From contig CAZYTO010000001.1 in NCBI GenBank assembly GCA_964650405.1, positions 4,268 through 68,267 on the forward strand: a DNA stretch of 64,000 nt. Reading direction: 5' to 3'. Under the pieces are notes generated by a model, which saw only the letters and a list, made by a program, of their open reading frames with translations, did not search any database and was not told where the DNA came from. This document shows, piece by piece, positions 29,890 through 52,076 of the stretch. The position numbers were made by a program, and so were the translations under genes. This DNA is from an uncultured Thermoanaerobaculia bacterium (GTDB lineage Bacteria > Acidobacteriota > Thermoanaerobaculia > Gp7-AA8). How positions within the stretch are numbered: position 1 is the stretch's first letter; each line of letters starts with the position of its first letter.

Positions 29890-29893
29890 GCCG

Positions 29894-34220: not shown

Positions 34221-34269
34221 AAGGGCGCACCGGGGTCAGGGGCCGCGCCGGGGTCAGAGCTTCTGTCTT

Positions 34270-34370
34270 CTCCGGCGTGACCAAAGACCGAAGGTCTGAC
34301 CCCAGCAGTGCCAACCGGACACCGAAGATCTGGCCCCAGCCCTGCCGAAGACCGAAGGTCTGACCCCAAC
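34270..34370. repeat. Tandem ~34-bp repeat (x3) with embedded mini-hairpin AGACC-GAA-GGTCT in the spacer between the FtsX-like permease and TolC genes
   Basis: agaccgaaggtctgacccca occurs twice exactly (about 34278 and 34346), with a degenerate third copy, gacaccgaagatctggcccca, between them. Confidence 0.4.
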
Positions 34371-34403
34371 CTTGTCGCGGGGGCCGCCGAGGCGGCGGGG
34401 TTC

Positions 34404-35612: not shown

Positions 35613-35822
35613 TCGCCCGCCCCGGCATTGCGATTCGCTTTGCTCTGTCGCAGATTGGAGCCTGGGAGAAACCCCTCACCCCGGCCCTTCCGCGCTGAGG
35701 GTAGCGAAGCCGATTCCGCCCGCGTGGAAGTGCGCGCTCCAGGGCCGACCCTCTCCCGCCGGGAGAGGGTGGCCTTGTCTCGCTTTCCGTCTTCGACAGT
35801 CATTTCGTCTCAGTCCGATTCG

Positions 35823-36983: not shown

Positions 36984-37221
36984 CGACTCTTCACTCCCGC
37001 CCTTCTTGCAGAGAGACGTACGCGCCGGGGTCCGGTTTTGCTCACGATTCGCCATCAGCCGCACGCCAATTCCGCCGGATTTGCCTCTCGTAGCCCTATC
37101 CTGCCCTTCTCCGGACGGTTCCCAGATCCTATCAGGTTGAAAGTCTCCAATGATTTACATGGTTCAGCTTGCGAAAGTGTGAGTTACGACAAACAATCCT
37201 AGTCCCATAGGAGGTTTTTCT

Positions 37222-38763
37222 ATGACTCGGCGTTGTCTCTTCGTGATTCTTGCCCTGACGATCGGACTCCTTGCCATATCCATCTCCGGCCAGACGGTGG
37301 GAGCGGTGTTGACCGGCTCCCAGGAAGTGCCGGCGACGGCATCCCCCGGCTGGGGGAACTTCACCGGAACGTTCGACTCCACGCACTCGAACCTGACCAT
37401 CACCTGGACGGTAGCAAATCTCGGCGCCCCGATCACCGGGTTCCACATCCACCAGAAAGCCGCCGGGCAGCAGACGGGCGGCATCGTCTTCAATGTCCAG
37501 GGCCTCGGCGGGACGTTCGTAAACGGCAAGCTGACCGGAACGTTCCCGATCACGCCAACCCTGGCTACGCAGATCCTTACGAGCCCCTCGGATTTCTACG
37601 TCAACGTTCACACGAGTCAGTTCCCGGGCGGCGCGGTGCGCGGCGACCTGGCCATCAACAGCGGCGGAATGATTACGTATGCCGCAGATCTCCGCGGGAC
37701 GAACGAAGTGCCGGCCAACTCGAGCACCGCGTACGGCTCGGCGTTCGTGACGATCAATCCGAACAACAACCAACTGTCTTGGGAAGTGGCCACGACGGGT
37801 CTTTCGCCCACCCTGTCGCATATCCACGGGCCGGCGGCCGCGGGCGTGAATGGGTCGGTGATCATCAGCTTCGCCACGAACGCTTCGGCGTTTACGAACG
37901 GGCGGACGAACGGCTCCATCGACATCAGCTCGCTCAATCCCACGACGCTGGCGACACTGCTGTCCGATCCCACGCAGTTCTATGTAAACGTCCACTCGGC
38001 GGCGTTCCCCGGAGGCGAGATTCGCGGGCAGCTCACGAACGCGAACGAGTACGACGTCGCCGTGGCCGGCCACGTAACGAACGCCCTCGGGCAGACGTTC
38101 GTGACGGACGTCCGCGTGTTCAACCCGTCCTATGACACGCCGGCGGACGCGCTGCTCGAGTATTTCCAGAGCGGAACGACGGCGAACGCGACGCAGTCGA
38201 TGGCCGTGAGCATTCCGGCGCGCGGCACCGCCGCGCTGGACGACGCCACGGGATCCTCGGGTCTCAACGTCAGCGGCATCGGCGCGATTCGCGTCTCGGG
38301 CGCGTCGAAGCTGGCGGTGACCTCGCGCATCTTCGCCGACCTCCGCAGCAGCGGGAAGGGAACGTTCGGCCAGTTCGCGCCGGGGTTCGCCCGCAGCGCC
38401 GCGCTGCGCCGGGGAACGCTGCCTCAGTTGTCGAACCGCTCCGATCTCTCGGCCGGCTACCGCACGAACATCGGTTTCTTCAACCCCGTGAACCAGACGG
38501 CCACCCTTCGCCTCGAGCTGCGCGACGCCACCGGCGCGCTGGTCGGGTCGAACCTGCTCACGTTGCAGGCGCTCTCGCAGCAGCAGAACGCGATCGGCGT
38601 GTACTTCCCCGGCGTCGATCTCTCGAACGCCACGAACCTGACCCTGACGTTCGATTCGAGCGTCGGCATCGTGACCTATGCCTCGGTCGTCGACAACGTC
38701 TCGACCGATCAGATCTTCGTCTTCGCGCAGGAGGATACCGGCACGGCGACGAACAGTAATTGA
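37222..38763 (+). CDS. Secreted protein with two tandem CHRD domains plus a C-terminal beta-rich domain
   Basis: RBS AGGAGG at 37209-37214. Signal peptide. Two copies of the CHRD pattern: GSQEVP..SPGWG...HIH......FYVNVHTSQFPGGAVRGDL, then EVPANSSTAYGSAF...HIHGP...FYVNVHSAAFPGGEIRGQL. Confidence 0.8.
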   Translation: MTRRCLFVILALTIGLLAISISGQTVGAVLTGSQEVPATASPGWGNFTGTFDSTHSNLTITWTVANLGAPITGFHIHQKAAGQQTGGIVFNVQGLGGTFVNGKLTGTFPITPTLATQILTSPSDFYVNVHTSQFPGGAVRGDLAINSGGMITYAADLRGTNEVPANSSTAYGSAFVTINPNNNQLSWEVATTGLSPTLSHIHGPAAAGVNGSVIISFATNASAFTNGRTNGSIDISSLNPTTLATLLSDPTQFYVNVHSAAFPGGEIRGQLTNANEYDVAVAGHVTNALGQTFVTDVRVFNPSYDTPADALLEYFQSGTTANATQSMAVSIPARGTAALDDATGSSGLNVSGIGAIRVSGASKLAVTSRIFADLRSSGKGTFGQFAPGFARSAALRRGTLPQLSNRSDLSAGYRTNIGFFNPVNQTATLRLELRDATGALVGSNLLTLQALSQQQNAIGVYFPGVDLSNATNLTLTFDSSVGIVTYASVVDNVSTDQIFVFAQEDTGTATNSN

Positions 38764-38816: not shown

Positions 38817-40379
38817 CTACGCCCGCTTCTGTACTGCCATCCGCTGTTGTGCTGCCGTCGTCACTAGTGAGAGAAACCGCTCCACCTCCGCGCGCGAAAG
38901 GGTAGGGAGGTGCTCGAGGAGGCCGAGGAGTTGTGTCGCCTCGTAGTTACCGACGGCGGCGGCGAGCTTTTGTCTCATCAGTGCACGCACTTCGTCGCCG
39001 CCCCCTGCGAAGCCGCGTGGGATGGAGATCGCGCGTTGAACGACGTGGCCGTTTGTGAGGCGGATCTCCACGCGTGCACCGATGGGCTTGGTCGATTCGC
39101 GAAAATCCAACGGTCGCCGGTCGCCGGCGGCACGCGCCAGCGCCGCCACGAGCCGCGCGACCTGCCACGCATTGCGCAGGCGCGCCGTCTTTGCGAGGGT
39201 CAGGGCGAAGAGCGCGGCCTTCCAGCGGGGGATGCGGCGCAGCGCGGCGCCGATGGGAATGTCGGCCGTGAGCGCATTGACGGTCAACGGCACGTCATGA
39301 CGCGTCCGCACCCGTGCCGCCAGCGCCCAGACGTCGGGTCTGGCAATCCAGTCGCGCTTCAACTGGGCGGGCGTGAATTCGCGGGCCAGGATCGCCGAGG
39401 CGAGGACGAAGGGCGTGGAGAACGTGAGCGTGGAGATGCACGAGCGGGGTCCGTCGAGATACGGCGCGGAGTGTGCGTCCATCCCCACGGTGAAGATCGA
39501 GGCTCGGACGGCGACGGCCGCGATGTCGTCAGGCGATAGGTTGTGAGTGCGGACGAGGTCGAGCGTGGCATCGAGCGCGGCACAGAGATAGCCGCAAACG
39601 GGATAGAGCTTGTAACTGTTCGTCTCCGTATGCCATCGCTCGCCGAGGCCGTCGAGGAAGTCGCGCACCGGCAGGCGAGTGGCCCTGGCGAAGAAACCGC
39701 CGGAATCGTCGAGCGGATCGCGCGGTGCACGAAGGCCGGCGCGCACGGCGTCGATTGCTTCCATGCCGGTTCGCACCGGCAGCGCCGCACACAGCACCTT
39801 GGCATCGGAGCCGAGGAACGCGGGATAGAGCGCGTGGCCCGGGTACGACAGCGCGATGGCCAGCGCCTCGGCGAACTGTGTCTCGTTCAGCCCTTCGAGC
39901 CTGGCCCGTGCCGCGGCGGCCGCGACGAGGTGGAGGTGCGTCGCCATCTGACCGCGCGTGGAGCCGACCGCACAGACCATGTTGATGCGCGCCGCGAGCT
40001 CGTTGGCGATGAGCTGGGCGAGGAGCATCTCGGCGCCCGAGCGGCCATCGGCCAGTGCCAGGGGCACGATCACCGACGAGTGGCCGGTATGACCGCCGAG
40101 CATCACGTCGTCGAAGTCGACGACCATCGACCATGCCGCCATGAGCATGGCTGCATGCGCCGGCGGTGCGCTCTCGCCGGTCGGAACGATCCGCGCCGCG
40201 CCGGGACCGGGCGAGGGAAAGGCCGCGGCGATTTGCGCTCCGAGGTCGCTGTCGAAACCGGTGAAGACCGCGGCGAGCATCGACAGCCACTGGTTGACGG
40301 CCTGCTCGCGTACGTGCCGCGGCACGTCGTCGAGGGTGAGCCGGCACGCCCAGCGCGCCATGCGTTGGAGCGTGGTCAC
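38817..40379 (-). CDS. MmgE/PrpD-family protein (2-methylcitrate-dehydratase fold)
   Basis: 520 aa with an N-terminus typical of the family (..LTLDDVPRHVREQAVNQWLSMLAAVFTG..). GTG start at 40379. It lies downstream, on the same strand, of the FAAL-ACP-aminotransferase megaenzyme gene. Confidence 0.85.
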   Translation of the reverse strand: MTTLQRMARWACRLTLDDVPRHVREQAVNQWLSMLAAVFTGFDSDLGAQIAAAFPSPGPGAARIVPTGESAPPAHAAMLMAAWSMVVDFDDVMLGGHTGHSSVIVPLALADGRSGAEMLLAQLIANELAARINMVCAVGSTRGQMATHLHLVAAAAARARLEGLNETQFAEALAIALSYPGHALYPAFLGSDAKVLCAALPVRTGMEAIDAVRAGLRAPRDPLDDSGGFFARATRLPVRDFLDGLGERWHTETNSYKLYPVCGYLCAALDATLDLVRTHNLSPDDIAAVAVRASIFTVGMDAHSAPYLDGPRSCISTLTFSTPFVLASAILAREFTPAQLKRDWIARPDVWALAARVRTRHDVPLTVNALTADIPIGAALRRIPRWKAALFALTLAKTARLRNAWQVARLVAALARAAGDRRPLDFRESTKPIGARVEIRLTNGHVVQRAISIPRGFAGGGDEVRALMRQKLAAAVGNYEATQLLGLLEHLPTLSRAEVERFLSLVTTAAQQRMAVQKRA

Positions 40380-40410: not shown

Positions 40411-40520
40411 GAACGAGCGACGAGCGACCAGCGGCCAGCGAGACGCGATCAGCGGCCAGCGGAGCGCAACCAGCGAAGTGCGACCAGCGAACAGCGATCA
40501 GCGACCAGCGAATTGGAGCC
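40411..40520. repeat. Degenerate tandem repeat: nine CAGCG units (GACCAGCG / GATCAGCG / GGCCAGCG) in ~100 bp, in the spacer between the megaenzyme and MmgE/PrpD genes
   Basis: Sequence: acgagcgaccagcggccagcgagacgcgatcagcggccagcggagcgcaaccagcgaagtgcgaccagcgaacagcgatcagcgaccagcgaattgg. A near-palindrome CCTCCCTACGTAGGAGG follows at ~40536-40555. Confidence 0.4.
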
Positions 40521-40592: not shown

Positions 40593-43500
40593 TCACGCAC
40601 GCACACCGGCCAGCCGCTCGTAGCCGGCTTCGTCCTCCCTCTTCTCGAGCCTGTGGTCGAGCAGGACGCGGAATCCCAGCTCGTCCGCGAGCCGCTCCAT
40701 CTCCAGCACCTGCTGGAGTGAAAGGTCATATCCGAGACCGCTGTCCTGGTAGCGCTGGTCCATGGCCAGCATCATCGTCTCGGCCATGCAGGCGTAGGCG
40801 CTGCCGCGGGCCAGCGAGGCGTTGAACCCGAGCGAGGCGTCGCCGGGCATCCGCACCACGCCGCCGTCTATGACCAGGACGTCGGGACGGGCCGCGCGCA
40901 CCGCGGCGTCGACGTTCGACGGCCGCGAGATGTCGCAGACGATGGCGCGCTTGCGCAGGTTCTCGTCGCGCACCATCCGCTCGGTCGTGCTCGTACAGCA
41001 GACGACGAGATCGACGTCCGGCAGCGTTCCGGCGGCGTCGACGGAGATCTCGAGCGCATGCGTCCGCCGGATCAGCTCCTCGCCGATGCGTACCAGCGCG
41101 GCACGGTCGGGCGTCGGCGGAAGGGTGAAGTCGAGCTCCTCGACCCAGCTTGCGACGGAGCCCGGGGTGAGGTCAGACCCGCTCCGCAGCTCGTCGAGGG
41201 ACCAGACGATCCGGCCGGCGACCTGCAGCAGGCGCTCGCGCGTCTCGTTCGGATGGGCGGGATTGCCGATGAGCACGAGCCGCCCCGCATCGCGCGAGAG
41301 GAGGATCGACAGCGCGGACCCGATGGCCCCGCCGGCACCGACGATGCCGACCGTGCGGCGGGCCAGGTTGAGGCTCCGCTCCGCCGCGGCCAGGCGGATG
41401 GTCTGCCGCGCCGCGACGGCCGTGAACGAGTTCCCGGTCGTCAGCGGCGGCAGTCCGTTGCCCTTGAGCGACAGGCCGCCCTGCGTGACCACGGAGGTGT
41501 AGGCGCCGAGGCCGATGATCTTCGCGCCGCGCTTCTGGGCCAGCTTCGCCGCGTCGTAGATCTCGGCCACGGCCCGGTCGTGCTTCATGGCCCGCAGTTC
41601 CTCGGCGCGCCGCGGCACGAGGATGAACTCCCCGTATGCCGACTTGTGATTGTCGCCGGTGACACGCGTCTCGCCGATGACCAGCGGGTCGAAGTTGTCG
41701 CCGAGGGCGTTCGAAAGCGCGGAGAGCTGCGCCTCGTCGAGCGGCGCGAGGCTGCCGTCGATATCGCCGTAGTCCTTCCACGCCAGCGGATGCACGAGGA
41801 AGGCGAAGCGCCCTTCGTTCCGGCGCGGCTCGAAGCGGTGGGCACGCGCCTCGGCGCGAGGGCGGTGGATCTCGACCGTGGCGCTGAAGCCGGTGACCTG
41901 CGAGGTGAGCGCAGCGAGGTTACGCCGGTCGATCCGTTGCAGCACGCGCTCCAGCGCGTGGAGGAAGAACTGGCACTCGTCCCACGTGGCCGTCAGCGGC
42001 GGCTCGATGCGCAGCACGCCCCCCTGGTTGAGCGTGTAGCCGACGCGTACGCCTTCGACGTGGAGGAGGTGGCTGACCACGAGGGCTGTCAGCGCTTCCT
42101 GCTCGCCGAGGTACCCGAGCAGGCCGTCGCCGGCATTGTGGCGAGTGAGACCAAAGCGGAGACCGAGGAGGTAGCCGCGCCCGCGGACTTCGCCGATGAG
42201 GCCCGGATAGCTGCGATCGAGCGCCAGCAGGCCGTCCTTGAGCCGGGCGCCGTTCGCGGCCACCTGGCCGATCAGCGCGCCTTTGTTCTCTTCGAGGAGA
42301 TCGAGGGTGGCCAGGCCGGCGCGGCAGGCCAGCGTATTACCTGCGAAGGTCGACGTGTGTTTCAGCGCGAACTCGTCGTTGTAGGCGGCGGCCGTGCAGA
42401 GACACGCGCCGATGGGAACGAGCCCGCCGCCAAGCGCCTTGGCCACGGTCATCACGTCGGGGGTGATGCCGAGATCGCGGCAGACGAACATCGCGCCGGT
42501 CCGGCCCAGCCCCGTCTGGATCTCGTCGGCGACGAAGAGCGTGCCGGTCTCGCGGCAGATCTTGCGCGCCTGGCGGAGATACCCCGCCGGCGGCTCCACG
42601 ATGCCGCCCTCTCCCTGGATCGGCTCGACGACGAATGCCGCGTGCCGGCCGCCGGAGAGGATCCGGCGTAGCGCGTCGAGATCGCCGTACGGAACGTACT
42701 CGAAGCCGGGCACCGGCGCTCCGAACGGTTTCTGGTACTTCTCCTTGTCCGTCGCGGAGAGCGCGCCGAGCGTCTTGCCGTGGAAACCGTTGTTCGCGGC
42801 GAGGACGGCGTGGCGTCCGGTCGTGGAGCGGCAAAGCTTGATGGCCGCCTCGATGGCTTCCGCGCCGCTGTTGGCGAACGTGACATACGCCATGCCCGGC
42901 GGCGCCACGGCGAGCAGCCGCTCCGCCAGCTCTCCGGCGGCGTTGAGCAGCGACGGCTGGACGAAGCTCGGCTCGCCGCGCTCGCGCACGGCCTGCAGCG
43001 CAGCCCAGATGCGGGGTGGATTGAAGCCGAACGGGAGGGCACCGTATTGCGCGAGAAAGTCGAGATACCGCCGGCCGTTCTCGTCCCACAGCCAGCTTCC
43101 CTCGCCGCGCACGAACGACTTGTCCATGCCCATTTGTGTCAGGAGACGCCCGAGCTCGGGGTTCACGGACGTTTCGAAGGGATGCGGGCGGCGAGCGGCG
43201 AGCGGCGAGCGGGGAGACGCTGGAGTCGAACGGGAGTCGGCCAGCGGGGGACGTTGCATGGCGACCGACGGCTGAAGCTGGGGCGGTGCGGACGGGATTG
43301 CCGCGGCCTGCGGAGTTAGACGCACCGGCAAGGGAGGTGGCGGCGGGCTGGTCGTTTTCTTCGTGTGCGGCGGAACGAGCGGCGTGACGTTGGCCGGAGA
43401 GGCCGGCTCGCGCGGCGTTTCCTGAATGCGGCGGACGGGCTGGCGGGGGCGCGGCCGCCCCTCGAAGAGGCTCCCCGCGTCCAGGTGGAGCGCGAACGTC

Positions 43501-45395
43501 TCCTCGATCTCGCCGACGAGGGTGACGACGACGAGGGAGTCGAGGCCGAACGCCACGAGCGGCAGGTCGCGGTCGAGGAGTGCAGCCGGCTGTCGCGTTC
43601 GTGCGGCGATGCCCTCGACCAGCCACGACTCCAGGCGGTCGAGGCCACGTCCCCGCTTCGGGGCAGTTGGTTCGTCCAGTCGGGCGAACAGCGCCTCGTC
43701 CCTCCAAGCGGTGATGGGGTCCAGGTTGCCAGCCAGGAACTCGTTCCGGATCAGCGCGCGCTGCGTCTTGCCGCTGGTCGTCTTCGGCAGGCTGTTCGGG
43801 CGGAGGAGGGAGACGGCGGAGACCTCGACCGTGAGCTCGGCGGCGACGGCGCTGCGGATGCGTGCCATGAGCGCATTCGTGTCGAGATCGCGCCGCGCCT
43901 CGCGGCGGACCTCGGCGACGATGACCAGTCTCTCCGCACCGGCCACGTCGGCCGAGACCGCCGCGACGAACGAGGCGTGAATGGCCGGATCGCACTGCTC
44001 GACGACCTGCTCGATGTCCTGGGGCGCGAGGTTGCGGCCGCGGATGATGATCAGGTCCTTGATGCGGCCGGTGACGAACAGCTCCCCATCGTGCAGGAAG
44101 CCGAGGTCGCCGGTGCGCATGAACGGACCGTCGCCATCGGCGAGATGCGCAGCAAACGTCTCCGCGGAGAGCTCCGGCTGATGCCAGTAGCCTTGCGCCA
44201 CGCTCGGGCTGCCGAGCCAGATCTCGCCCACTTCGTCCTCGTTGCAGCGGCGTCCCGAGCCGGATTCGACGATCACCACGCGCGAGTCGAGCAGGGGAGC
44301 CCCGCAACTGACGAGGCTCGCGCACGGCGCCGTGGCCGCCGGGCGCGGCCGATGCGACTCCAGGCTGGCGCGCGAGAACGACGTCGTGCCGCGGTGGTAG
44401 CGGCCGGTGGCAAAGAGCGTGTTCTCGGCGAGACCATAGCAGGGGAAGAACGCCTCGCGCCGGAAGCCGCACGGGGCGAACGCTTCGGCAAACGCATCGA
44501 GCGTGGCGGCGCGGATCGGCTCCGCGCCGTTGAAGGCGGTGCGCCACCGTGAGAGATCGAGTCCCTCCCGCTCCTCCGCAGAGATGCGCTCGACGCACAG
44601 CCCATAGCCGAAGTCGGGGGCGCCGCTGAACGTCCCGCCGTAACGGCTGACGGCGTCGAGCCAGAGGCGCGGCTTCTTGAGGAAATCGACCGGTGCGAGC
44701 AGGTAACACGGCACGCCGTTATAGAGCGACGACAAGACGATGCTGATCAGGCCCATGTCGTGGAAGAGCGGCAGCCACGACACGATGACCGTGTCGGGGC
44801 CGTGATGGACGGCCTCCTTCGCCAGGGCCTGATTGTGAATGATGTTGCCGTGGCTGACCATCACGCCTTTCGGCGCGGAAGTCGACGCTGACGTGTATTG
44901 CAGGAAGGCCAGAGTATCGGGTCCGGCATTGGGATCGACCCACGCCGAAGCTTCGTCGAGGGACACCTCGCTGGTGATCAGCCACTCGACGGCGGCCAGG
45001 CCGGGGGCTTCGTCGAAGCGCGCCGCCAACTGGCGATGGACGACGTCGGTGGTCATGGCCACTTTGGGCCGGGCGTCGTCGAGGATGGCCGCCAGGCGCT
45101 TGAGGTTGTGATTGGCCCGCGGCGGATAGCCGGGAACAGCCACGGCGCCGGCGGCCAGACATCCATAGAAGGCGGCGATGTACTCGGTCCCGCTGGGATA
45201 GAGGAGCAGGACGCGCTCGCCCCGCGCGCCGAGCCGTTGCAGCCGGGCGGCCAGGGCCCGTACGCGCCGGTCCAACTGGCCGAAGGAGAGGGTCTCCGAC
45301 TCGTCGCCTCCGCTGAGGAACGTATAGGAGCGCGCGCCCGGCCGGGTCTGGGCGCGGTCGCGAAGCAGGTGAATGAGCGAAGCAGGCGATGCCAT
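40593..45395 (-). CDS. Four-domain biosynthetic enzyme: fatty acyl-AMP ligase (FAAL) - ACP - Pro-rich linker - class-III (PLP) aminotransferase - C-terminal Rossmann-fold NAD(P)-binding dehydrogenase-like domain
   Basis: 1,600 aa. The N-terminal ~580 aa is an adenylation/FAAL fold (..YTFLSGGDESETLSFGQLDRRVRALAARL..). The carrier domain has a GLDSL phosphopantetheine site. The linker is PPPPPLPVRLTPQAAAIPSAPPQLQPS. The aminotransferase motifs are ..ANSGAEAIEAAIKL.., ..FHGKTLGA.., and ..VADEIQTGLGRTGAMF... The C-terminal ~450 aa contains GIVGAGGAIGSALSILL but no family that can be confidently assigned. Confidence 0.85.
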   Translation of the reverse strand: MASPASLIHLLRDRAQTRPGARSYTFLSGGDESETLSFGQLDRRVRALAARLQRLGARGERVLLLYPSGTEYIAAFYGCLAAGAVAVPGYPPRANHNLKRLAAILDDARPKVAMTTDVVHRQLAARFDEAPGLAAVEWLITSEVSLDEASAWVDPNAGPDTLAFLQYTSASTSAPKGVMVSHGNIIHNQALAKEAVHHGPDTVIVSWLPLFHDMGLISIVLSSLYNGVPCYLLAPVDFLKKPRLWLDAVSRYGGTFSGAPDFGYGLCVERISAEEREGLDLSRWRTAFNGAEPIRAATLDAFAEAFAPCGFRREAFFPCYGLAENTLFATGRYHRGTTSFSRASLESHRPRPAATAPCASLVSCGAPLLDSRVVIVESGSGRRCNEDEVGEIWLGSPSVAQGYWHQPELSAETFAAHLADGDGPFMRTGDLGFLHDGELFVTGRIKDLIIIRGRNLAPQDIEQVVEQCDPAIHASFVAAVSADVAGAERLVIVAEVRREARRDLDTNALMARIRSAVAAELTVEVSAVSLLRPNSLPKTTSGKTQRALIRNEFLAGNLDPITAWRDEALFARLDEPTAPKRGRGLDRLESWLVEGIAARTRQPAALLDRDLPLVAFGLDSLVVVTLVGEIEETFALHLDAGSLFEGRPRPRQPVRRIQETPREPASPANVTPLVPPHTKKTTSPPPPPLPVRLTPQAAAIPSAPPQLQPSVAMQRPPLADSRSTPASPRSPLAARRPHPFETSVNPELGRLLTQMGMDKSFVRGEGSWLWDENGRRYLDFLAQYGALPFGFNPPRIWAALQAVRERGEPSFVQPSLLNAAGELAERLLAVAPPGMAYVTFANSGAEAIEAAIKLCRSTTGRHAVLAANNGFHGKTLGALSATDKEKYQKPFGAPVPGFEYVPYGDLDALRRILSGGRHAAFVVEPIQGEGGIVEPPAGYLRQARKICRETGTLFVADEIQTGLGRTGAMFVCRDLGITPDVMTVAKALGGGLVPIGACLCTAAAYNDEFALKHTSTFAGNTLACRAGLATLDLLEENKGALIGQVAANGARLKDGLLALDRSYPGLIGEVRGRGYLLGLRFGLTRHNAGDGLLGYLGEQEALTALVVSHLLHVEGVRVGYTLNQGGVLRIEPPLTATWDECQFFLHALERVLQRIDRRNLAALTSQVTGFSATVEIHRPRAEARAHRFEPRRNEGRFAFLVHPLAWKDYGDIDGSLAPLDEAQLSALSNALGDNFDPLVIGETRVTGDNHKSAYGEFILVPRRAEELRAMKHDRAVAEIYDAAKLAQKRGAKIIGLGAYTSVVTQGGLSLKGNGLPPLTTGNSFTAVAARQTIRLAAAERSLNLARRTVGIVGAGGAIGSALSILLSRDAGRLVLIGNPAHPNETRERLLQVAGRIVWSLDELRSGSDLTPGSVASWVEELDFTLPPTPDRAALVRIGEELIRRTHALEISVDAAGTLPDVDLVVCCTSTTERMVRDENLRKRAIVCDISRPSNVDAAVRAARPDVLVIDGGVVRMPGDASLGFNASLARGSAYACMAETMMLAMDQRYQDSGLGYDLSLQQVLEMERLADELGFRVLLDHRLEKREDEAGYERLAGVRA

Positions 45396-45576
45396 GACTG
45401 TTCGATATCGATTCGATGACGGTCCGATTCGTGTGACTCGTTGCTGACGGCGCGGGGATTTGTGACGGCAATGTAGATCGGAATACGGAAGTTGTCAATT
45501 CCATGAAGAAAGAATTGCGTCATGCCGTTATTTAATGTATAACGCGGCCATCCACTATTGCGGGCCGGAGGATCTG
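45396..45576. promoter_or_regulatory. AT-richer divergent promoter region of the biosynthetic cluster
   Basis: Candidate sigma70-like elements for the plus operon: TTGCGT-N17-TATAAC (about 45517-45545). RBS GGAGG at about 45566-45570, then ATG at 45577. Repeated TGTGAC motifs lie upstream. Confidence 0.35.
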
Positions 45577-46707
45577 ATGAATTTCCTGAAACGGGATCGG
45601 GAGACGCTGGAGAGATTTCTGCCGGGGCTCGACGCCCGCCTGCTGAACATCCCCCTCATGGACATCGAACAGCCGGGAAACCCCGGCCTCACCTTCCTGC
45701 GCGAGCTGGAAGGCGCCGCCCTGCTGGTTCCTGCCCAGCACGGCGGTAAGGGAGCCTCGGCCGCGGAAGCCATCCAGATTCACCGCGCCGTGGCCACCCG
45801 GTCGCCCTCCCTGGCCATCGCCATGACCATGCATAATTTTTCCGTCGCCACCCTGGTCGAGTACCTCTTCTATGGCGACTACACGGTGGAGCTGCTGCAG
45901 CAGATCGCCGGCGGCCAGTTGCTGGTGGCCTCGGGGTTCGCCGAGGGGCGGGCGGGCACGAGCATTCTCGATCCGGCCATGAAGGCTACGCCGCTGGAGG
46001 GCGGCGGCTACCTCCTCAACGGCAGCAAGAAGCCCTGCAGCCTCCCGAATTCGATGCACATTCCTACGGCCAGCGGGGCGGTGCCGTCCAAAAGCGGCAA
46101 CGGCGGTCATCGCCGGGCCGTTGCCGTTGTTCCGGCTGATGCCGAGGGGATCGATCGGAGGCCGTTCTGGAGCAGCAACGTTCTACGGGGCGCGGAGAGC
46201 GAAGAGCTCTGCCTGACCAACGTGGCCATCACCGACGCGCAGCTCTTCTTCCCGGAAGTGGAGGAGAGCCTCGATGCCGTCGAGGCGGGCGGGTTTCTCT
46301 GGTTCGAGCTGCTCGTCTCGGCCTCGTATCTCGGCGTGGCCTCGGCCCTCGTGGAGAAGGTGCTCACCAGCAACCGTGGCGACGCCAATGAACGGATGCA
46401 ACTGGCCATCGAATGCGAAGGGGCCATGGCCGCGCTGGAAGGCGTCGCGCGCGCCATGCAGACGGGCGAGCGGGGCGAGGCCATCCTCGTACAGTCGCTC
46501 CTCGTCCGCTTCTCCGTGCAGCAGGCCATCGAGCGGATCACCGCTCGGGCGGCCGAGCTCCTCGGCGGCATGGCCTTCATCAAGTCGCCCGACGTCGGCT
46601 ACCTCTACGCGGCCAGCCGGGCCCTGGCCTTCCATCCGCCGTCGCGGCTCAGCGTGAGTGCGGCCGTCGACGGCTACCTGCACGGCCAGCCGATGCAGGT
46701 GGCGTAA
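45577..46707 (+). CDS. Acyl-CoA-dehydrogenase-fold flavoenzyme (candidate amine N-hydroxylase / acyl-ACP dehydrogenase)
   Basis: ACAD middle-domain pattern (..GRAGTSILDPAMKATPLEGGGYLLNGSKKPCS..) and a C-terminal helical domain. The RBS-supported start is at 45577. The listed upstream ATG at 45535 would overlap the putative -10 box. Confidence 0.7.
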   Translation: MNFLKRDRETLERFLPGLDARLLNIPLMDIEQPGNPGLTFLRELEGAALLVPAQHGGKGASAAEAIQIHRAVATRSPSLAIAMTMHNFSVATLVEYLFYGDYTVELLQQIAGGQLLVASGFAEGRAGTSILDPAMKATPLEGGGYLLNGSKKPCSLPNSMHIPTASGAVPSKSGNGGHRRAVAVVPADAEGIDRRPFWSSNVLRGAESEELCLTNVAITDAQLFFPEVEESLDAVEAGGFLWFELLVSASYLGVASALVEKVLTSNRGDANERMQLAIECEGAMAALEGVARAMQTGERGEAILVQSLLVRFSVQQAIERITARAAELLGGMAFIKSPDVGYLYAASRALAFHPPSRLSVSAAVDGYLHGQPMQVA

Positions 46708-46716
46708 ACGGAGGCG

Positions 46717-47187
46717 GTGATCATGGACAAGCACAACCGCTTCCATACGCCGGCGATCTACAACCTCGAGCGGCTGGACTGGCTGGTAATCGGTGCCGTA
46801 GCCCTCATCCTGCTGTGCGTGGAGCGGCATGAGGTGCGGTGGTGGCCTTTCGTCATTGCCTTCGCGTTTCCCGACGTCATCGGGACGTTCCCCGGCCTCT
46901 ACTGCTATTACGGGCGGCGCAACGGCGCGCATCGCTCCATTCCCGGCGTCATTCACCAGCTCTACAACTTCGGACACTCGTTCGCCACGCTCGGCCTGTT
47001 CTGTGCCGGCTGGTTCCTGGTGACGCGCCGCTTCGAATGGTGGATGCTGGCGTTCCCCATCCATCTCGCGGGCGACCGGTCGATCTTCGGCAACATCTAC
47101 AAGCCATTCGGCACGGCCTTCGAGCCGGTGCCCCACGACGCCTTCGTCCGCTTCGAGCGCGAGTACCGCGCCGCCGGCACCTGGTGA
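46717..47187 (+). CDS. Small integral membrane protein (156 aa, ~4 TM), hypothetical
   Basis: Hydrophobic segments WLVIGAVALILLCV, WWPFVIAFAFPDVIGTF, FATLGLFCAGWFLV, WWMLAFPIHLAG. Tightly spaced within the operon. Confidence 0.5.
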   Translation: MIMDKHNRFHTPAIYNLERLDWLVIGAVALILLCVERHEVRWWPFVIAFAFPDVIGTFPGLYCYYGRRNGAHRSIPGVIHQLYNFGHSFATLGLFCAGWFLVTRRFEWWMLAFPIHLAGDRSIFGNIYKPFGTAFEPVPHDAFVRFEREYRAAGTW

Positions 47188-47198
47188 GGAGGACGCTC

Positions 47199-48155
47199 AT
47201 GACTGCCATCCCGAAGGAAGCGGACTGGAACGAGGCGCCCGGCCTGATCGAAGGCGCCAGCCGCCTCGAGCTGACCGCGCGCGATTGCCATCTCGACTAT
47301 TGGCTGACGGCCGTGCCGCAGGGCACGCTGCGCGGAACCGTTCACGGGCACTCGCCGCAGGCGCGCATCCCCGACTACATGCTGCGCGAAGGGCCGCTGC
47401 GGGCAGCCATCATGAACGAGTTCGCCTTCCGGGCCATCGCCGAGGAGAAGGCCACACGCGCCATCACCTACATCGTGGCCAGCGCGCCCGACGTCTGGTC
47501 CATGGAGTTCTTCGTCACCCAGCTCGTTGACGAGGCACGCCACTCGCGCGTGCTCCGCGACCACCTCGTGGAACCCGGCGTAACGGAGGACGAGCTGTTC
47601 CCGCCGAACGAGCGCATTGCTGGCGACGACGTCCGCGCCACCCTGGCGCCGCTCGAAGACTTCGCCCTGCCGATGATCCGCGACGATCGCGACTTCATCG
47701 CCGGAGTGGTCATCCTGACCATTCTCGTGGAAGGCGTTCTGGCACCGGCCGCGGAGCTGTCGCACTGCAAGTGGCGGCTCCTCGATCCCGCCGCGGCGGA
47801 GATCGAACGGGGAGCCAACATCGACGAGATCCGCCACCTCACGGTGGGCAGCGCGATCGTCCGCGAGTACCTGCTTGCGCATCCCGGCGAGAAGGCGCAC
47901 GTCCTCGAGATCATCACGCGGGGGCGGGCTCTGTGGGCCGCCCTCCCGGCCTCGGAGGTGATCTTCAAACGCGAGATCCTCTTCCAGCAGGGACTGGAGG
48001 AGCACGCTGCCGTAGCCGGCGACTACGAGGTCTGGCCGGGGCGGCGCCTCGTGGATACTACGCCGGAAGAGCGCCTGATGACCGCGCACACGTGGTCGGC
48101 GGAGATGCAGAACAGCCGCCTGCGCTATATGGGATTGCCGGAGGCCATTCCGTGA
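47199..48155 (+). CDS. Ferritin-like non-haem di-iron carboxylate protein (putative oxygenase/oxidase)
   Basis: RBS GAGGAGG precedes ATG 47199. Two E...ExxH pairs: EFAFRAIAEE / QLVDEARH, and ILVEGVLAPAAE / NIDEIRH. This is the 4-helix-bundle di-iron ligand pattern found in AurF-, ADO- and UndA-like enzymes. Confidence 0.6.
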   Translation: MTAIPKEADWNEAPGLIEGASRLELTARDCHLDYWLTAVPQGTLRGTVHGHSPQARIPDYMLREGPLRAAIMNEFAFRAIAEEKATRAITYIVASAPDVWSMEFFVTQLVDEARHSRVLRDHLVEPGVTEDELFPPNERIAGDDVRATLAPLEDFALPMIRDDRDFIAGVVILTILVEGVLAPAAELSHCKWRLLDPAAAEIERGANIDEIRHLTVGSAIVREYLLAHPGEKAHVLEIITRGRALWAALPASEVIFKREILFQQGLEEHAAVAGDYEVWPGRRLVDTTPEERLMTAHTWSAEMQNSRLRYMGLPEAIP

Positions 48156-49186
48156 TGCCGGCGAGCGATGCACCGGCTTCCGAGCGCCTGGCCGCGGTCG
48201 TGCGCCGCGGGCTGCGGCTCGACGAAGGCGCGGCCGTATCTCTACGGGAGGTCGGAGAGCTCGCCAACATCAATTACGTCTATCGCGTCGAAGTGCCGGG
48301 CCGCAGCCTCTACCTCAAGGTCGTGCCCGAAAAGCCGAAGCGTCTTCCGGTACGCCTCCCGCGGGAGCGTGTCTTTTCCGAGGCGGAGGCCATCCGCCGT
48401 TTCGGCGCACTGGCGGGAGGGCGCGTTCGCATCCCCGAGGTGCTGTTCGTCGACGAAGAGGAGATGGCCCTCGGCATGACCGACGTGGGCGAAGGGCGGC
48501 ACGTGCTCTTCGAGGTGTTGCCCGACGGCTTCGAGCTGCTGAGCGAAGCCGCGGAAGCGCTGGGACTGGCTCTCGGGACGATTCATCGCGGCACGCGGGC
48601 AGGCGGCAGCCTGAGGCCCGCTGCGGAAGAGGCGGTGATTCGCAGGATCGTCTTCGACGGTCTGCTCGCGCCGGGTGCCATGCACATCTTTCCCGAGGCG
48701 TGGCCCGACGTGCTGGCCGAGATGCAGGCCTTTCGCGAGTGCCTCATCCACGCCGACCTCTGGAGTAAGAACCTCCTCGTCCGCGCGGGCGAGCCCGTGG
48801 CCATCGTCGATTTCGAAGGTGTCTGCTACGGCGATCCCGCTTTCGACCTCGGCACGCTGACGGCGGTGGCGGTGTTGCCGGCACTGGAACGGCCGGCGTT
48901 GGCAGGAGAGGCGCTGGGGTTTGTGACGCGCCTGCTGCGGAGCTGGGCGATGACCGCCGGCGCCGACGCCTGGTACCCGGCCGTGCAGCGGCGGACGTTC
49001 CGCGCCACGGCGACGTTCCTCGCCGCTCGGGGCTTCGGTCCGTTCGCCTACGACCTGAGCGACGAGGCAAAGCAGCGGATCGCCCAGCTCGGGCGCGCGC
49101 TGGCCACGAGCCCGCCGCCGGACTTCGCCGGCTTTCGCGATCTCGTCCTCCGGTATGCAGCCGTGACCGCCGAGGCGCGCTCGTGA
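48155..49186 (+). CDS. Aminoglycoside-phosphotransferase/choline-kinase-like (APH-fold) kinase
   Basis: Catalytic-loop HADLWSKNLL and metal-binding IVDFE motifs. ATG overlaps the previous stop (TGATG). Confidence 0.75.
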   Translation: MPASDAPASERLAAVVRRGLRLDEGAAVSLREVGELANINYVYRVEVPGRSLYLKVVPEKPKRLPVRLPRERVFSEAEAIRRFGALAGGRVRIPEVLFVDEEEMALGMTDVGEGRHVLFEVLPDGFELLSEAAEALGLALGTIHRGTRAGGSLRPAAEEAVIRRIVFDGLLAPGAMHIFPEAWPDVLAEMQAFRECLIHADLWSKNLLVRAGEPVAIVDFEGVCYGDPAFDLGTLTAVAVLPALERPALAGEALGFVTRLLRSWAMTAGADAWYPAVQRRTFRATATFLAARGFGPFAYDLSDEAKQRIAQLGRALATSPPPDFAGFRDLVLRYAAVTAEARS

Positions 49187-50331
49187 TGCGCAGCCGGGTC
49201 TACGACTCGATCGACGACATCGGCGCGGCCCGGCTTGCGCCGCTGTCCACCGGCCTCGATTTCTCCTACGGCCTGCTGCGGGCTATGGAGCGCTCGATCT
49301 GGGGCGACCTCGCCGTCCGCTACCTGGCCGTCGAGGATGACGACGGCACCCTGCTCCTCTTCACGCCCGTCTATGCCGGCAGTAATCTCAATTTCAACGC
49401 GCTGCTGCCGAAGGCCATCCAGAAGGGGTATGGCGCGCTTGTTCGCGCGGTGGGGCAGGCCATGGCCACCCGCGTGGCCGTCGTCGGCTGCCTCATCTCC
49501 GATCGAGGCTGGATCCCGATGCATCCGGAGCTGCGGGATCGCGCCGCGGCATTGCGCCTGATGTTGCAGGACCTCGACGTCGTGGCGAAGCAGCACCATG
49601 CCCAACTGGCCATGCTCAAGGACATCCATCGCGACTTTCCGGAGGAAGACCGCGCCGTCCTGCGCGCCGGCGGATACCTGGAGGGCTTCTCCCTCCCCAC
49701 CATCCGCATCAACACGGCCTATCCGTCGTTCGAGGACTTCCTGGCGAAGCAGTTGACGAAGAACGGCCGCAAACATGCGCGCAAGCAGTTTCACCGGGCC
49801 GAGGGCGTCTTCGAGCTGCGGGCCATCGCCGATTTCGAGGAGATGGTGCCCCGCGTCTTTCCGCTGCACCGGGCGGTGTTCCTGAAGGCGAAGTACCAGT
49901 TCGAGGAGCTGCCGCCGCGCTTCTTCGTCGAGTGCGCCCGGTCGCAGACTCCGAAGACGGAGCTGATCGTCTGCGAGCGGGTGGCTGACCGGCGCATTGT
50001 CGGTTCGCTGATGATCTTCTACGACGACCACGAACAGCAGAACAAGCGGATCGGCATCGACTACAGCATCGAAGAGAGTGGTCTGGTCTACAACCTGCTC
50101 AACTACACCGGCATCCAGCGCGCCATCGCCCGCGGCATCCGGACGCTCTGGCTCGGCCAGAGCTCCTACGTCCCCAAGACGCGCCTCGGCGGTGAGCTCG
50201 ACGACCAGTACCTGCTGATCAAGGCGTACGACCCGCTCCTGAAGCCGACCCTGCCGCTGCAGAAGTGGTGGATGTCCCGCTACTCCGCGGCCAACATCCT
50301 CGCCGGCGTCGAACAAGGGGTGTCGCTGTGA
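49183..50331 (+). CDS. FemXAB/BioF2-like GNAT-fold acyl/aminoacyl transferase
   Basis: 382 aa with two tandem GNAT-like halves. It resembles the Acetyltransf_6 / FemAB family that includes tRNA-dependent aminoacyl transferases. ATGA overlap with the kinase gene. Confidence 0.6.
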   Translation: MMRSRVYDSIDDIGAARLAPLSTGLDFSYGLLRAMERSIWGDLAVRYLAVEDDDGTLLLFTPVYAGSNLNFNALLPKAIQKGYGALVRAVGQAMATRVAVVGCLISDRGWIPMHPELRDRAAALRLMLQDLDVVAKQHHAQLAMLKDIHRDFPEEDRAVLRAGGYLEGFSLPTIRINTAYPSFEDFLAKQLTKNGRKHARKQFHRAEGVFELRAIADFEEMVPRVFPLHRAVFLKAKYQFEELPPRFFVECARSQTPKTELIVCERVADRRIVGSLMIFYDDHEQQNKRIGIDYSIEESGLVYNLLNYTGIQRAIARGIRTLWLGQSSYVPKTRLGGELDDQYLLIKAYDPLLKPTLPLQKWWMSRYSAANILAGVEQGVSL

Positions 50332-51374
50332 CCCGGGTCGTGCTGACGGGCGCCGCGACGATGACGGGCTTCGAGGTGCTGAAGTCGCTGCTCGAGTGCC
50401 ACGAGGTGACGTCCATCCGGCTGCTGCTGCCGGCAGGAGCATCCGGCCGCGTCGGCACGCTCCTCGGAGGGCTCCCTGCCTCGGTGCAGGTCACGGAGGC
50501 GCGGATTGATCTGCTGCAGTTCGGGTTGCCGCTCGCGGCGCTGGAGGAGCTTGCCGCGTCGTCGGACGTGGCCGTTCACTGTGCACAGCGCGAGAGGCCC
50601 GATCAGGATCTCGAACGGGCGCGGGAGGTGAACGTCCTGCCGGTCGTTACGTGGATCGCGCTGCTGGAGCGGCACCCGGCCTTGCGCCTGCACCACCTCT
50701 CGTCGGCGCTCGTCGGCGGCGACCGGAAAGGCCTCTTCACGGAGTTCGACCTCGACTGCGGCCAGGGTTTTCACAATGCCTGGGAGCGCAGCAAGTTCGA
50801 GGCTGAGGTGCGGCTGCGCGGATCGAGCGTGAGCGACCGGGTGACGATGTATCGCCCCAGCCATACGCTGGCCCGGCTGCCGGCCATGGAGCTCGGCGGC
50901 GCCTCACCGCTGCTGGCGACGCTCGCCGCGGCCTCGCTGCTGCCCGGAGACCCCAAAGCACGGCTCGACTTCGTCCCTGCCGACTACGTGGCCGGCGCGA
51001 TGGTGGCGCTGCTGCGCAAGGAAGCGGAAGGAACGTTCCACATCGCCTGCGGCTGGAACGATTCGCTGCCGGTGACGCAGGCCGCCGCGCTGGCCGCTCA
51101 AGGCCGCGGGCGGGCCCGGGGCGCGTTCGTGCTGCCGCGCATCGCTTCCTGGCCGCAGAGCGTGTTCGGAGCGGCCGCGCCGAACGGGCTGTCGACGCGG
51201 CGCCTGGCGTTCGCCACGGCACGCGACCTCCTCCACCAGGGGCCGGTATTCGACACGTTCCGCGCGGAGGGCGCGCTCGACATCCCCTGCCCGGCGCCCG
51301 AAAGCTGGCTCGCCGATGCGGTCCGCCTCGGCGAATCGCAGCACTGGCACAGAGCCAGTCGCGTCGTTCGCTGA
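50328..51374 (+). CDS. Stand-alone thioester reductase (NRPS R-domain-like extended SDR, NAD_binding_4)
   Basis: GTG start overlapping the previous stop (GTGA). TGAATMTGFEV nucleotide-binding loop and catalytic Y..SK (HNAWERSKFEAE), as in carboxylic-acid reductase / NRPS terminal reductase domains that release aldehydes from carrier proteins. Confidence 0.75.
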   Translation: MTRVVLTGAATMTGFEVLKSLLECHEVTSIRLLLPAGASGRVGTLLGGLPASVQVTEARIDLLQFGLPLAALEELAASSDVAVHCAQRERPDQDLERAREVNVLPVVTWIALLERHPALRLHHLSSALVGGDRKGLFTEFDLDCGQGFHNAWERSKFEAEVRLRGSSVSDRVTMYRPSHTLARLPAMELGGASPLLATLAAASLLPGDPKARLDFVPADYVAGAMVALLRKEAEGTFHIACGWNDSLPVTQAAALAAQGRGRARGAFVLPRIASWPQSVFGAAAPNGLSTRRLAFATARDLLHQGPVFDTFRAEGALDIPCPAPESWLADAVRLGESQHWHRASRVVR

Positions 51375-51434: not shown

Positions 51435-52076
51435 TCACCAGAGCAACGGCACCAGCGCCCGCACCTCGCGCCGGTAGGTTGTGTACGCGTCGCCGAGGCG
51501 GCCGATCATCTCAGCTTCTTCATAGCGGATGCGGCGGACGTAGGCGAAGAGCTGGAAGACCAGCGAGAGCGCGGCCCCGATCCAGGCGTGGAGAAACAGC
51601 AGCGTCCCCACGAACAGCAGCAGCGCGCCGCCGTACGCGGGGTGGCGGATGAAGCGGAACGGCCCTGTGCGGATGACCTGGTGGTCGTCGTACACAGTGA
51701 TGAACCAGGTGAAGTAGCGGCCGAGCGTGCGCACGGCCCAAACGCGCAGACTGAGACCGGCCAGCATCAGGGCGGCCGCGATCGTGGTGACAGCGTCCCA
51801 GTCGAAGCTGGCGGGGTAGCGCAGGTACAGCGCCTCCAGCACGCCGGCGAGCTGGGTGAGGTAGACGGACCAGACGATCTGCGCGGCCGTGCCGCGGTCG
51901 CGGGGAGGGGCAGCCGCGTCGATCGGCTTGTAGACCGGCTGGAAGATGGAGATGGCCATGGCCACGGCCACCAGGATCCAGAGCTGCGGATGGAGCAGCG
52001 CCCGCGGCTGTCCCGCGGCGGGCAGGATGTAGAACGCGGCCGCGGCGATGAGCGCCGTGAGGACCTTGCGGATCAT
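51435..52076 (-). CDS. Isoprenylcysteine carboxyl methyltransferase / phospholipid methyltransferase-family membrane protein
   Basis: 213 aa, multi-TM, with RHPAYGG and EE...L motifs. ATG at 52074-52076. The longer listed ORF upstream is Arg/Pro-rich read-through. Confidence 0.8.
   Translation of the reverse strand: MIRKVLTALIAAAAFYILPAAGQPRALLHPQLWILVAVAMAISIFQPVYKPIDAAAPPRDRGTAAQIVWSVYLTQLAGVLEALYLRYPASFDWDAVTTIAAALMLAGLSLRVWAVRTLGRYFTWFITVYDDHQVIRTGPFRFIRHPAYGGALLLFVGTLLFLHAWIGAALSLVFQLFAYVRRIRYEEAEMIGRLGDAYTTYRREVRALVPLLW

Follow-up and report, generated by a model that had tools for sequence, protein, structure and literature searches.

What is made by a protein that carries a fatty acyl-AMP ligase (FAAL), an acyl carrier protein (ACP), an aminotransferase and a further nucleotide-binding domain on one chain, and which pathway takes up its product? 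The question is raised by an open reading frame (ORF) of 1600 aa (40593..45395, minus strand) on a 64,000-nucleotide stretch of DNA, here called the window, from an uncultured Thermoanaerobaculia bacterium of the Acidobacteriota (GenBank assembly GCA_964650405.1, contig CAZYTO010000001.1, positions 4,268 to 68,267). Here, we report that the ORF has the order FAAL, ACP, class III transaminase, acyl-ACP reductase (AAR)-like thioester reductase, and that it lies beside genes resembling those of the valanimycin pathway. Judged from homology, the protein would act as a single-polypeptide fatty amine synthase, its amine most likely entering an azoxy pathway of the valanimycin/azodyrecin type, and we put the probability of this reading at about 0.72.

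The G+C content of the window is 63 to 70%, and the codon-position G+C of the ORF (0.71/0.50/0.88) follows the pattern of a genuine gene, with its third-position signature. Pfam regions in the ORF were AMP-binding (residues 12 to 404), a DIP2-like C-subdomain (447 to 559), PP-binding (591 to 648) and Aminotran_3 (761 to 1152), with Shikimate_DH alone on the C terminus (1455 to 1502, sub-threshold). A first-pass annotation, which gave no strand, had described a single polypeptide of FAAL, ACP and aminotransferase with a C-terminal Rossmann-type domain; Pfam and NCBIfam bear this out, and the two strings quoted there (GIVGAGGAIGSALSILL and DLVVCCTSTTERMV) were both found in the translation. It had also stated that ketosynthase (KS) and acyltransferase (AT) domains are missing, and scans of the ORF and of the likely genes across the window found no KS, AT or condensation (C) domain; nor did Pfam find an amino-acid-activating adenylation (A) domain in the ORF. 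About 76 proteins of 1500 to 1660 aa came up in a database search, mostly from metagenome-assembled genomes (MAGs) of Acidobacteriota and collinear with the whole ORF at 41 to 71% identity (closest match, 71%). Because these proteins run the full length, the ORF is not a frameshift artefact joining or splitting separate genes, a case that the first-pass annotation had raised. Residue conservation was judged in a MAFFT alignment of 73 full-length four-domain sequences, and K543, S620, D957, K986, G1353/G1356/G1359 and C1536 were invariant (73/73).

The C-terminal domain, at first left unassigned and given as about 450 aa, is by sequence matches and predicted fold a member of the AAR superfamily, of the thioester reductase type found in PigE and described for TamH and KecF. 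Its structured part is about 390 aa (residues 1195 to 1581 in an AlphaFold2 model; 40653..41813, minus strand), with the nucleotide motif GxGGxxG present as GAGGAIG at 1353 to 1359 and the catalytic cysteine at C1536 (codon 40788-40790). In NCBIfam, the last 447 residues matched the N-terminal region of the PigE model (2e-35) and TIGR04058, the cyanobacterial AAR model (1.8e-21); among Protein Data Bank (PDB) sequences, they matched PigE 4ppm (1e-19) and AAR 6jzu (1e-14). The motif YACMAETMM aligned with FACFAEAM of AAR, which holds the catalytic C294, and C1536 is thus the counterpart of C294. The AlphaFold2 model (built on 19 homologues; mean predicted local distance difference test [pLDDT], 84) was searched with Foldseek, and the best fold was again AAR 6jzu (E, 9e-22; target-normalized template modelling [TM] score, 0.81), a fold made up of an N-terminal subdomain, a Rossmann domain and a C-terminal part. 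Since fold, motif and cysteine are shared with AAR, the domain presumably uses a ping-pong acyl-enzyme mechanism. Relative to AAR and PigE, it has a confidently modelled helical insert of about 55 to 75 residues (approximately 1382 to 1445), which accounts for a spacing of 183 residues between GxxGxxG and the cysteine. The second-best folds were the carmabin TAD structures 9e4s and 9e50 (E, ~4e-18; TM, 0.61 to 0.67), and amino-acid (glutamate and tryptophan) and formate dehydrogenases followed at E values of ~1e-5 and TM of ≤0.34. A carmabin-type TAD identity was rejected because AAR is nearer both by sequence (1e-14 versus 3e-4) and by fold; an amino-acid dehydrogenase, with the Rossmann fold alone in common, and a shikimate dehydrogenase were likewise rejected as identities. 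Among the roles suggested at first pass, reduction of the thioester by the domain itself is thus favoured by the AAR and PigE matches, and regeneration of the amino donor by an amino-acid dehydrogenase is not; the well-known non-redox family envisaged there as a contrary case did not appear, the profile and structure checks giving AAR. No aldehyde-deformylating oxygenase was seen among the window genes scanned.

The remaining domains fit a route from a free fatty acid to an amine. The N-terminal FAAL-type adenylation domain (residues 1 to 565; 43701..45395, minus strand) has an A10 lysine (K543), a Pfam AMP-binding match (3e-68) and a DIP2-like C-subdomain (PF23024). Its top NCBIfam matches were FAAL families (PRK05850 [2e-128], FadD32 and FadD21), and although all scores fell below equivalog cut-offs, they suggest that the domain is nearer to FAAL (PRK05850, 429 bits; FadD32, FadD21 and FadD28, 320 to 365 bits) than to acyl-CoA ligase families (PRK07768, 308 bits). 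The segment at about 335 to 365 may be the FAAL-specific insertion, of the kind in FadD32 and FadD28, that blocks use of CoA. The ACP (residues ~585 to 655; 43431..43643, minus strand; PP-binding, 1.5e-6) carries the phosphopantetheine serine S620 within GLDS (codon 43536-43538). It is followed by a poorly conserved, proline-rich linker (residues ~656 to 745; 43161..43430, minus strand; column identity, 0.16 to 0.25), presumed to be a flexible tether; the transaminase begins 140 aa after the ACP serine here and 70 to 233 aa after it in homologues. The pyridoxal phosphate (PLP)-dependent class III (omega) transaminase (residues 746 to 1160; 41916..43160, minus strand; Aminotran_3, 2e-87) has its catalytic lysine at K986 (codon 42438-42440) together with D957. 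Its top NCBIfam models were PigE, putrescine aminotransferase and acetylornithine aminotransferase, and the stand-alone transaminase from a Streptomyces alkyl-azoxy cluster shares 36% identity with it.

With four domains that include an AAR-type reductase, the protein reads as a natural head-to-tail fusion of TamA and TamH. Given NADH and glutamate in vitro, PtTamA (adenylation-ACP) and PtTamH (transaminase-AAR-like reductase) converted a C12 acid to the C12 amine; leaving out the amino donor revealed the aldehyde, and the PtTamH reductase required an ACP-bound substrate, refusing acyl-CoA (PMC9594044). By analogy, the FAAL domain would adenylate a free fatty acid to the acyl-AMP and then transfer the acyl group to its own ACP, onto the phosphopantetheine arm at S620. 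On its long proline-rich tether, the ACP would bring the acyl thioester to the AAR-like domain, where the acyl group would pass to C1536 and an NAD(P)H-dependent reduction would yield the aldehyde, in the manner of cyanobacterial AAR and PtTamH. The transaminase (K986) would then turn the aldehyde into a primary alkylamine (1-aminoalkane), with glutamate or alanine as the probable donor. Homology agrees here with the first-pass suggestion of a self-contained fatty-acid-to-fatty-amine enzyme.

Where the amine would go is indicated by the neighbouring genes. Divergent from the four-domain gene is a tightly packed set of genes in which adjacent start and stop codons overlap by 1 to 4 nt, and which are therefore read as one operon. 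A valanimycin-type azoxy cassette in this operon had been missed at first pass, although a reductase within it had been seen. The genes were compared with a RefSeq-annotated valanimycin-type cluster on a Streptomyces plasmid (L087, below the reference cluster), which contains a diacylglycerol (DAG)-type kinase, PrpD, serS, DUF2156, an acyl-CoA dehydrogenase family gene, a 169-aa hypothetical protein, a flavin reductase, a VlmB-like protein and a PLP decarboxylase.

Three genes in the order VlmH-VlmO-VlmB, as in Streptomyces clusters, form the core. The first encodes an acyl-CoA-dehydrogenase-fold flavoprotein (45535..46707, plus strand), a VlmH-like candidate amine N-hydroxylase, which aligns along its full length with the gene in the VlmH position of the reference cluster (42% identity; E, 2e-96); DszC monooxygenases are its best solved relatives. 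A TamT-like acyl-ACP desaturase identity was rejected for this gene, given these similarities. The second encodes a VlmO-like integral membrane protein of 154 aa (46723..47187, plus strand), 38% identical to the protein at the VlmO position (E, 1e-33), with a weak match to DUF4260, as was also reported for Ady6/VlmO (PMC9379638). In 12 VlmO-like sequences, one per locus, D53, H87, H116 and D120 were invariant, and by their spacing these would match the essential VlmO residues D51, H82, H110 and D114 (PMC11705231). The third encodes a putative VlmB-like non-haem di-iron azoxy synthase (47199..48155, plus strand) that has no Pfam match and shares 49 to 52% identity with genes that RefSeq labels "VlmB-like protein", located on 13 Streptomyces plasmids. 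Over its full length, it matches PDB 6d9f/8wvr ("Putative VlmB homolog"; E to 6d9f, 3.3e-100) and keeps both ExxH motifs (DEARH and IDEIRH). We take 6d9f to be VlmB of Kitasatospora setae; the VlmB UniProt entry given in a review, E4N6B3, belongs to the Kitasatospora setae series. VlmB is a di-iron enzyme that converts a hydrazine intermediate to the azoxy group of valanimycin (PMC11705231).

Further genes extend the resemblance. An APH-family kinase (48155..49186, plus strand; Pfam APH, 8e-18; weak matches to LxmK and MTR kinase models), whose start overlaps the VlmB-like stop, is presumed to replace VlmJ functionally. The next gene encodes a FemAB-like dupli-GNAT protein (49186..50331, plus strand; Pfam FemAB_like and Acetyltransf_6) with a 100%-identical database entry (P0269). 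Sequence and profile searches of PDB returned nothing for it; its AlphaFold2 model (pLDDT, 88) gave FemX, the MprF soluble domain and Sba18/Sbb17 as best folds, all aminoacyl-tRNA-dependent transferases, and the MprF soluble domain is the fold family of VlmA. A DUF2156/PF09924 (VlmA) gene is absent from the cassette, and the FemAB-like protein has no similarity to the DUF2156 VlmA homologue of the reference cluster (BLASTP E, 0.11); we therefore presume it to be an aminoacyl-tRNA-dependent transferase analogous, not orthologous, to VlmA. A stand-alone NAD_binding_4/thioester-reductase-type short-chain dehydrogenase/reductase (50265/50328..51374, plus strand; Pfam and NCBIfam) is the separate R-domain reductase already placed in trans at 50328-51374 by the first-pass annotation, whose start is plausible because the GTG there overlaps the upstream stop by 4 nt. 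This reductase is a conserved cluster member and not an obvious partner of the carrier domain; in locus L001, it is fused to an alpha/beta hydrolase, and the azodyrecin cluster likewise encodes a hydrolase and a reductase (bioRxiv 10.1101/2023.10.13.562208). On the same strand as the four-domain gene and downstream of it lies a VlmK-like lyase of the MmgE/PrpD family (38817..40379, minus strand; Pfam), which is 35% identical to the PrpD gene of the reference cluster (E, 6e-69) and matches no NCBIfam PrpD model; its family, PF03972, is that of VlmK (PMC9379638). A membrane methyltransferase of the ICMT/PEMT family (51435..52076, minus strand; Pfam and NCBIfam) is co-conserved in four other loci (L001, L008, L013 and L086) and may methylate a product carboxylate.

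The association is not confined to the window. Among homologues with enough flanking sequence, 13 distinct loci, the most divergent at 41% identity, have the cassette beside the four-domain gene; the VlmH-, VlmO- and VlmB-like genes form its core, the FemAB-like and NAD_binding_4 genes are present in most, and the kinase, PrpD and ICMT genes are present in many. The hosts include MAGs of several Acidobacteriota lineages (Pyrinomonadaceae, Thermoanaerobaculia, Holophagales and Candidatus Angelobacter), a Nannocystaceae MAG and a "delta proteobacterium" MAG.

Taken from these resemblances, the predicted pathway would begin with N-hydroxylation of the alkylamine by the VlmH-like flavoprotein and O-aminoacylation of the hydroxylated amine from an aminoacyl-tRNA by the FemX/MprF-fold transferase. 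The VlmO-like membrane protein would form the N-N bond, and the VlmB-like di-iron enzyme would install the azoxy group by a four-electron oxidation. Were serine the amino acid used, its side chain would be dehydrated to an exo-olefin by the kinase together with the PrpD/VlmK-like lyase; the ICMT-type methyltransferase and the stand-alone reductase would serve as tailoring enzymes. The product of the cluster is most likely a long-chain alkyl azoxy (N=N-O) compound.

An alternative ending is that the fatty aldehyde or amine is made and the Vlm-like genes stop at a hydrazine or hydroxylamine lipid, another N-N or N-O product, or an N-acyl aminolipid. Orthologues of VlmA and VlmJ were not found and neither was VlmR, the NAD_binding_4, ICMT and DinB_2-like genes have no valanimycin counterpart, and azodyrecin mutants gave fatty amine-alanine amide shunt products (bioRxiv 10.1101/2023.10.13.562208). 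We nonetheless hold this ending to be unlikely: the VlmB-like match is full length (E, 3e-100) with both ExxH motifs kept, and the VlmO, VlmH and VlmK homologues are present and co-conserved. It is very improbable that the C-terminal domain is instead a TAD-like amidation domain or a donor-regenerating amino-acid dehydrogenase, with the NAD_binding_4 protein reducing the thioester. The TAD structures are indeed the second-best folds, with a weak sequence match (3e-4), glutamate and tryptophan dehydrogenases do appear at E values of ~1e-5, and the trans reductase is conserved in the cluster; AAR and PigE are nevertheless much nearer than TAD in both sequence and fold, the dehydrogenases reach a TM of only ≤0.34, and the catalytic cysteine is invariant. 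The domain, moreover, always stands directly behind the transaminase, as in PtTamH, for which aldehyde and amine have been shown (PMC9594044). Carmabin TADs reportedly end nonribosomal peptide synthetase (NRPS) modules, where a fused transaminase would not be expected.

The FAAL-ACP-...-aminotransferase (AMT) order, which occurs in iturin-type loading modules, could also mean that the transaminase acts on an in-chain oxo group of an ACP-bound substrate, as in iturin or mycosubtilin, with the reductase releasing an amino aldehyde. We give this hardly any credence, as neither the ORF nor its surroundings offer a KS or anything else that could supply a beta-keto group, the transaminase is nearest to aldehyde- and omega-amine-type enzymes (PigE and the putrescine and acetylornithine aminotransferases), and the adjacent acyl-CoA-dehydrogenase-fold gene is a VlmH homologue and not a beta-oxidation enzyme. 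The iturin-type loading module that the first-pass annotation had used as its comparator is replaced by TamA and TamH.

Several points weigh against a fatty amine synthase feeding an azoxy pathway. Every function and pathway step, for all the four-domain homologues as well, is read from homology, and the likeness to PtTamA/PtTamH was judged through their published description, PigE and AAR rather than by direct alignment. The C-terminal domain counts as a superfamily member and not an orthologue because its scores are far under the NCBIfam equivalog cut-offs (TIGR04058, 76.9 versus 449.7 bits; PigE model NF053554, 510.6 versus 850 bits for the whole protein, matching in three pieces with the order swapped). 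The conserved NAD_binding_4 reductase could in principle act on a carrier-bound acyl group. For the VlmA and VlmJ steps, fold or family is what points to the present candidates, neither of which is an orthologue, and the kinase is of the APH type versus the DAG-kinase type of VlmJ, though a VlmK homologue is present. Scanning of the window ORFs turned up no VlmR-type flavin reductase (one could be encoded elsewhere in the genome), and the window genes scanned included neither a dedicated aminoacyl-tRNA synthetase nor a phosphopantetheinyl transferase. Two four-domain homologues (L003 and L084) lie in unrelated contexts without the cassette, so the enzyme is not exclusive to azoxy pathways.

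The transaminase-AAR unit occurs in other settings too. A profile of the C-terminal domain found 3,644 representatives at an E value of ≤0.001 among 50%-identity clusters, in which PtTamH was not recognized by its published motif positions. The unit forms stand-alone didomains of 850 to 1000 aa, follows a docking domain or FAAL-ACP, ends NRPS (C-A-PCP) and polyketide synthase (PKS; KS-ACP) modules, or precedes an adenylation domain; the FAAL-ACP form is thus one member of a modular family for release by reductive amination. Further permutations of the release unit (P0136, P0151, P0171, P0194 and P0129) include a recurrent class of transaminase-AAR-adenylation proteins of about 1400 aa, KS-ACP-transaminase-AAR, C-A-PCP-transaminase-AAR, TubC-type docking domain-transaminase-AAR, and a 2624-aa protein with the Pfam order adenylation, class I/II aminotransferase, adenylation (DIP2-type), ACP, transaminase, AAR. 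Stand-alone didomains abound in Bacillota (Syntrophomonadaceae, Peptococcaceae, Dethiobacter, Halanaerobiales and Sporotomaculum syntrophicum), and about 65 didomain loci (L012, L014 and L016-L083) showed no fused FAAL and no Vlm-like or other cassette neighbour.

Around the genes described, a sigma-70-like promoter match (45470..45498, minus strand; 10/12 positions, a consensus match only) sits upstream of the four-domain gene in the 139-bp intergenic region that separates it from the divergent operon. Between the four-domain gene and the PrpD-like gene, a 213-bp spacer contains an imperfect tandem heptamer array, AGCGACC (40416-40511; 13.7 copies, 68% matches). A DinB_2-like gene (52073-52825, minus strand) overlaps the ICMT start by 4 nt, with an ABC1 atypical kinase beyond it (53690-55684, plus strand); synteny with the homologous L001 cluster extends to these two genes, and they may belong to the cluster. 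In a further cluster at 50% identity (L085, 20082-23760), a 967-aa AMP-binding-ACP-acyltransferase and a fatty acid desaturase adjoin the cassette, which hints at further lipid tailoring; a fatty acid desaturase also occurs in the window, 17 kb away at 21884-23239. An isoprenoid/hopanoid run occupies 25383-32820 on the minus strand (LytB/IspH, DXP synthase, a phosphorylase-squalene/phytoene-synthase fusion, radical-SAM DUF3463 [HpnH-like] and squalene-hopene cyclase), and between it and the cluster lie an OEP/MacB-FtsX permease/HlyD-type efflux set and a CHRD-domain protein (32888-37064 and 37222-38763). A bacterial alpha-2-macroglobulin of 1978 aa (15396-21332) and a CarboxypepD_reg-Plug-beta-barrel TonB-dependent receptor (1969-5250) were also found; the receptor is of a type common in Acidobacteriota, in keeping with an acidobacterial host, which is probably a soil bacterium.

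AAR-type domains and their fusion with transaminases are of known kinds, as PtTamH (PMC9594044), PigE (PMC8341465) and KecF and its relatives (PMC10829540) have been described and partly characterized. What appear to be new are the four-domain single chain and its recruitment as the amine supplier of a Vlm-type azoxy cassette in non-actinobacterial phyla: the literature searched yielded neither a FAAL-ACP-transaminase-AAR fusion nor a Vlm-type cluster outside Actinobacteria, though such a search is not exhaustive proof of absence. As a wider proposal, which we regard as an even bet, uncultured Acidobacteriota and some Myxococcota would produce alkyl azoxy lipids with long chains, such as methyl 2-(alkyl-ONN-azoxy)acrylates, from a cluster that retains just the VlmH/VlmO/VlmB/VlmK core of the actinobacterial route and joins to it the four-domain amine synthase, a FemX-like protein for VlmA and an APH kinase for VlmJ. 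If this is true, the azoxy cascade reaches beyond the Streptomyces and Kitasatospora producers, to which all azoxy clusters described in the cited literature belong (PMC9379638, PMC11705231 and bioRxiv 10.1101/2023.10.13.562208). Aliphatic azoxy compounds (valanimycin, elaiomycins and azodyrecins) are bioactive and rare, and the conserved Acidobacteriota/Myxococcota cassette suggests a class of products yet to be explored and separates the indispensable steps (VlmH, VlmO and VlmB) from the replaceable ones (amine supply, aminoacyl transfer and kinase). The protein would, moreover, be the first self-contained enzyme for conversion of a fatty acid to a primary amine, a conversion that now takes a carboxylic acid reductase and a transaminase, or the two-protein TamA/TamH cascade, which its authors put forward as a useful biocatalyst (PMC9594044). 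Channelling could readily be tested on such a natural single chain, in which the carrier is tied to both active sites, and about 70 varied homologues could be screened.

Among known systems, the vlm and ady/azd clusters of Streptomyces and Kitasatospora share homologues of VlmH, VlmO, VlmB and VlmK in the same local order (PMC9379638, PMC11705231 and bioRxiv 10.1101/2023.10.13.562208). In the azodyrecin pathway, too, a fatty acid is the origin of the alkylamine, which arises by way of an aldehyde with a class III transaminase. Separate enzymes there lead from fatty acid to aldehyde, amine, N-hydroxylation, alanyl-tRNA and azoxy group, and a dehydrogenase or fatty-acid reductase with a transaminase has been proposed for amine supply (PMC9379638; bioRxiv 10.1101/2023.10.13.562208); the Streptomyces alkyl-azoxy clusters hold a separate "aldehyde dehydrogenase" and class III transaminase beside dedicated fatty acid synthase (FAS) genes. 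The amine source in Streptomyces is thus a valine decarboxylase or a discrete dehydrogenase or reductase with a transaminase, whereas here it would be one four-domain protein. FemAB-like and APH-type proteins stand in place of VlmA (DUF2156) and VlmJ (DAG-kinase type), VlmR and seryl-tRNA synthetase are lacking among the window genes scanned, and the host is apparently non-actinobacterial.

The mycosubtilin/iturin loading module (FAAL-ACP-KS-...-AMT) also starts with FAAL-ACP and has a PLP aminotransferase on one megasynthase, but there a KS makes the beta-keto group for amination and the chain continues into NRPS modules, whereas the ORF has no KS and ends in an AAR-like reductase. AAR itself (6jzu, TIGR04058) shares fold (TM, 0.81), nucleotide motif and catalytic cysteine with the C-terminal domain; it is, in contrast, a stand-alone enzyme of 340 aa that partners an aldehyde-deformylating oxygenase for alkanes, is about 21% identical in the structural alignment, and lacks both the extra helical insert and the position behind a transaminase. 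PigE (PDB 4ppm; prodigiosin 2-methyl-3-n-amylpyrrole [MAP] pathway) likewise joins an AAR-like reductase and a class III transaminase on one chain; the PigE model ranks first in NCBIfam for either half, and among PDB sequences PigE is nearest to the C-terminal domain. Its order is reductase then transaminase, it has no adenylation or ACP domain and is without about 50 residues of the helical insert, and its substrate is a 3-acetyloctanoyl thioester (PMC8341465); it is now thought to reduce the thioester and then transaminate (PMC8341465; PMC10829540). KecF, PpKTFusion and thermophilic fusions have the transaminase-AAR unit and a proposed role in polyketide release by reductive amination, but they are didomains fed by separate PKS/FAS-like carriers, for which transaminase activity alone was tested (PMC10829540).

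The fitting comparators are PtTamA and PtTamH of the tambjamine YP1 pathway (Pseudoalteromonas tunicata), which have the same four domains, the same chemistry and the same order of transaminase then reductase; the distance from GxxGxxG to the cysteine is 180 residues in PtTamH (G707 to C887) versus 183 here. The C-terminal domain of PtTamH, too, carried an amino-acid dehydrogenase annotation in databases before it was reassigned (PMC9594044). The two systems differ in that tambjamine YP1 uses two proteins, whereas a proline-rich linker joins the domains into one chain here; the adenylation domain here scores as FAAL type; and the amine goes to a bipyrrole in tambjamine YP1, whereas in the window it would probably enter the azoxy cassette.

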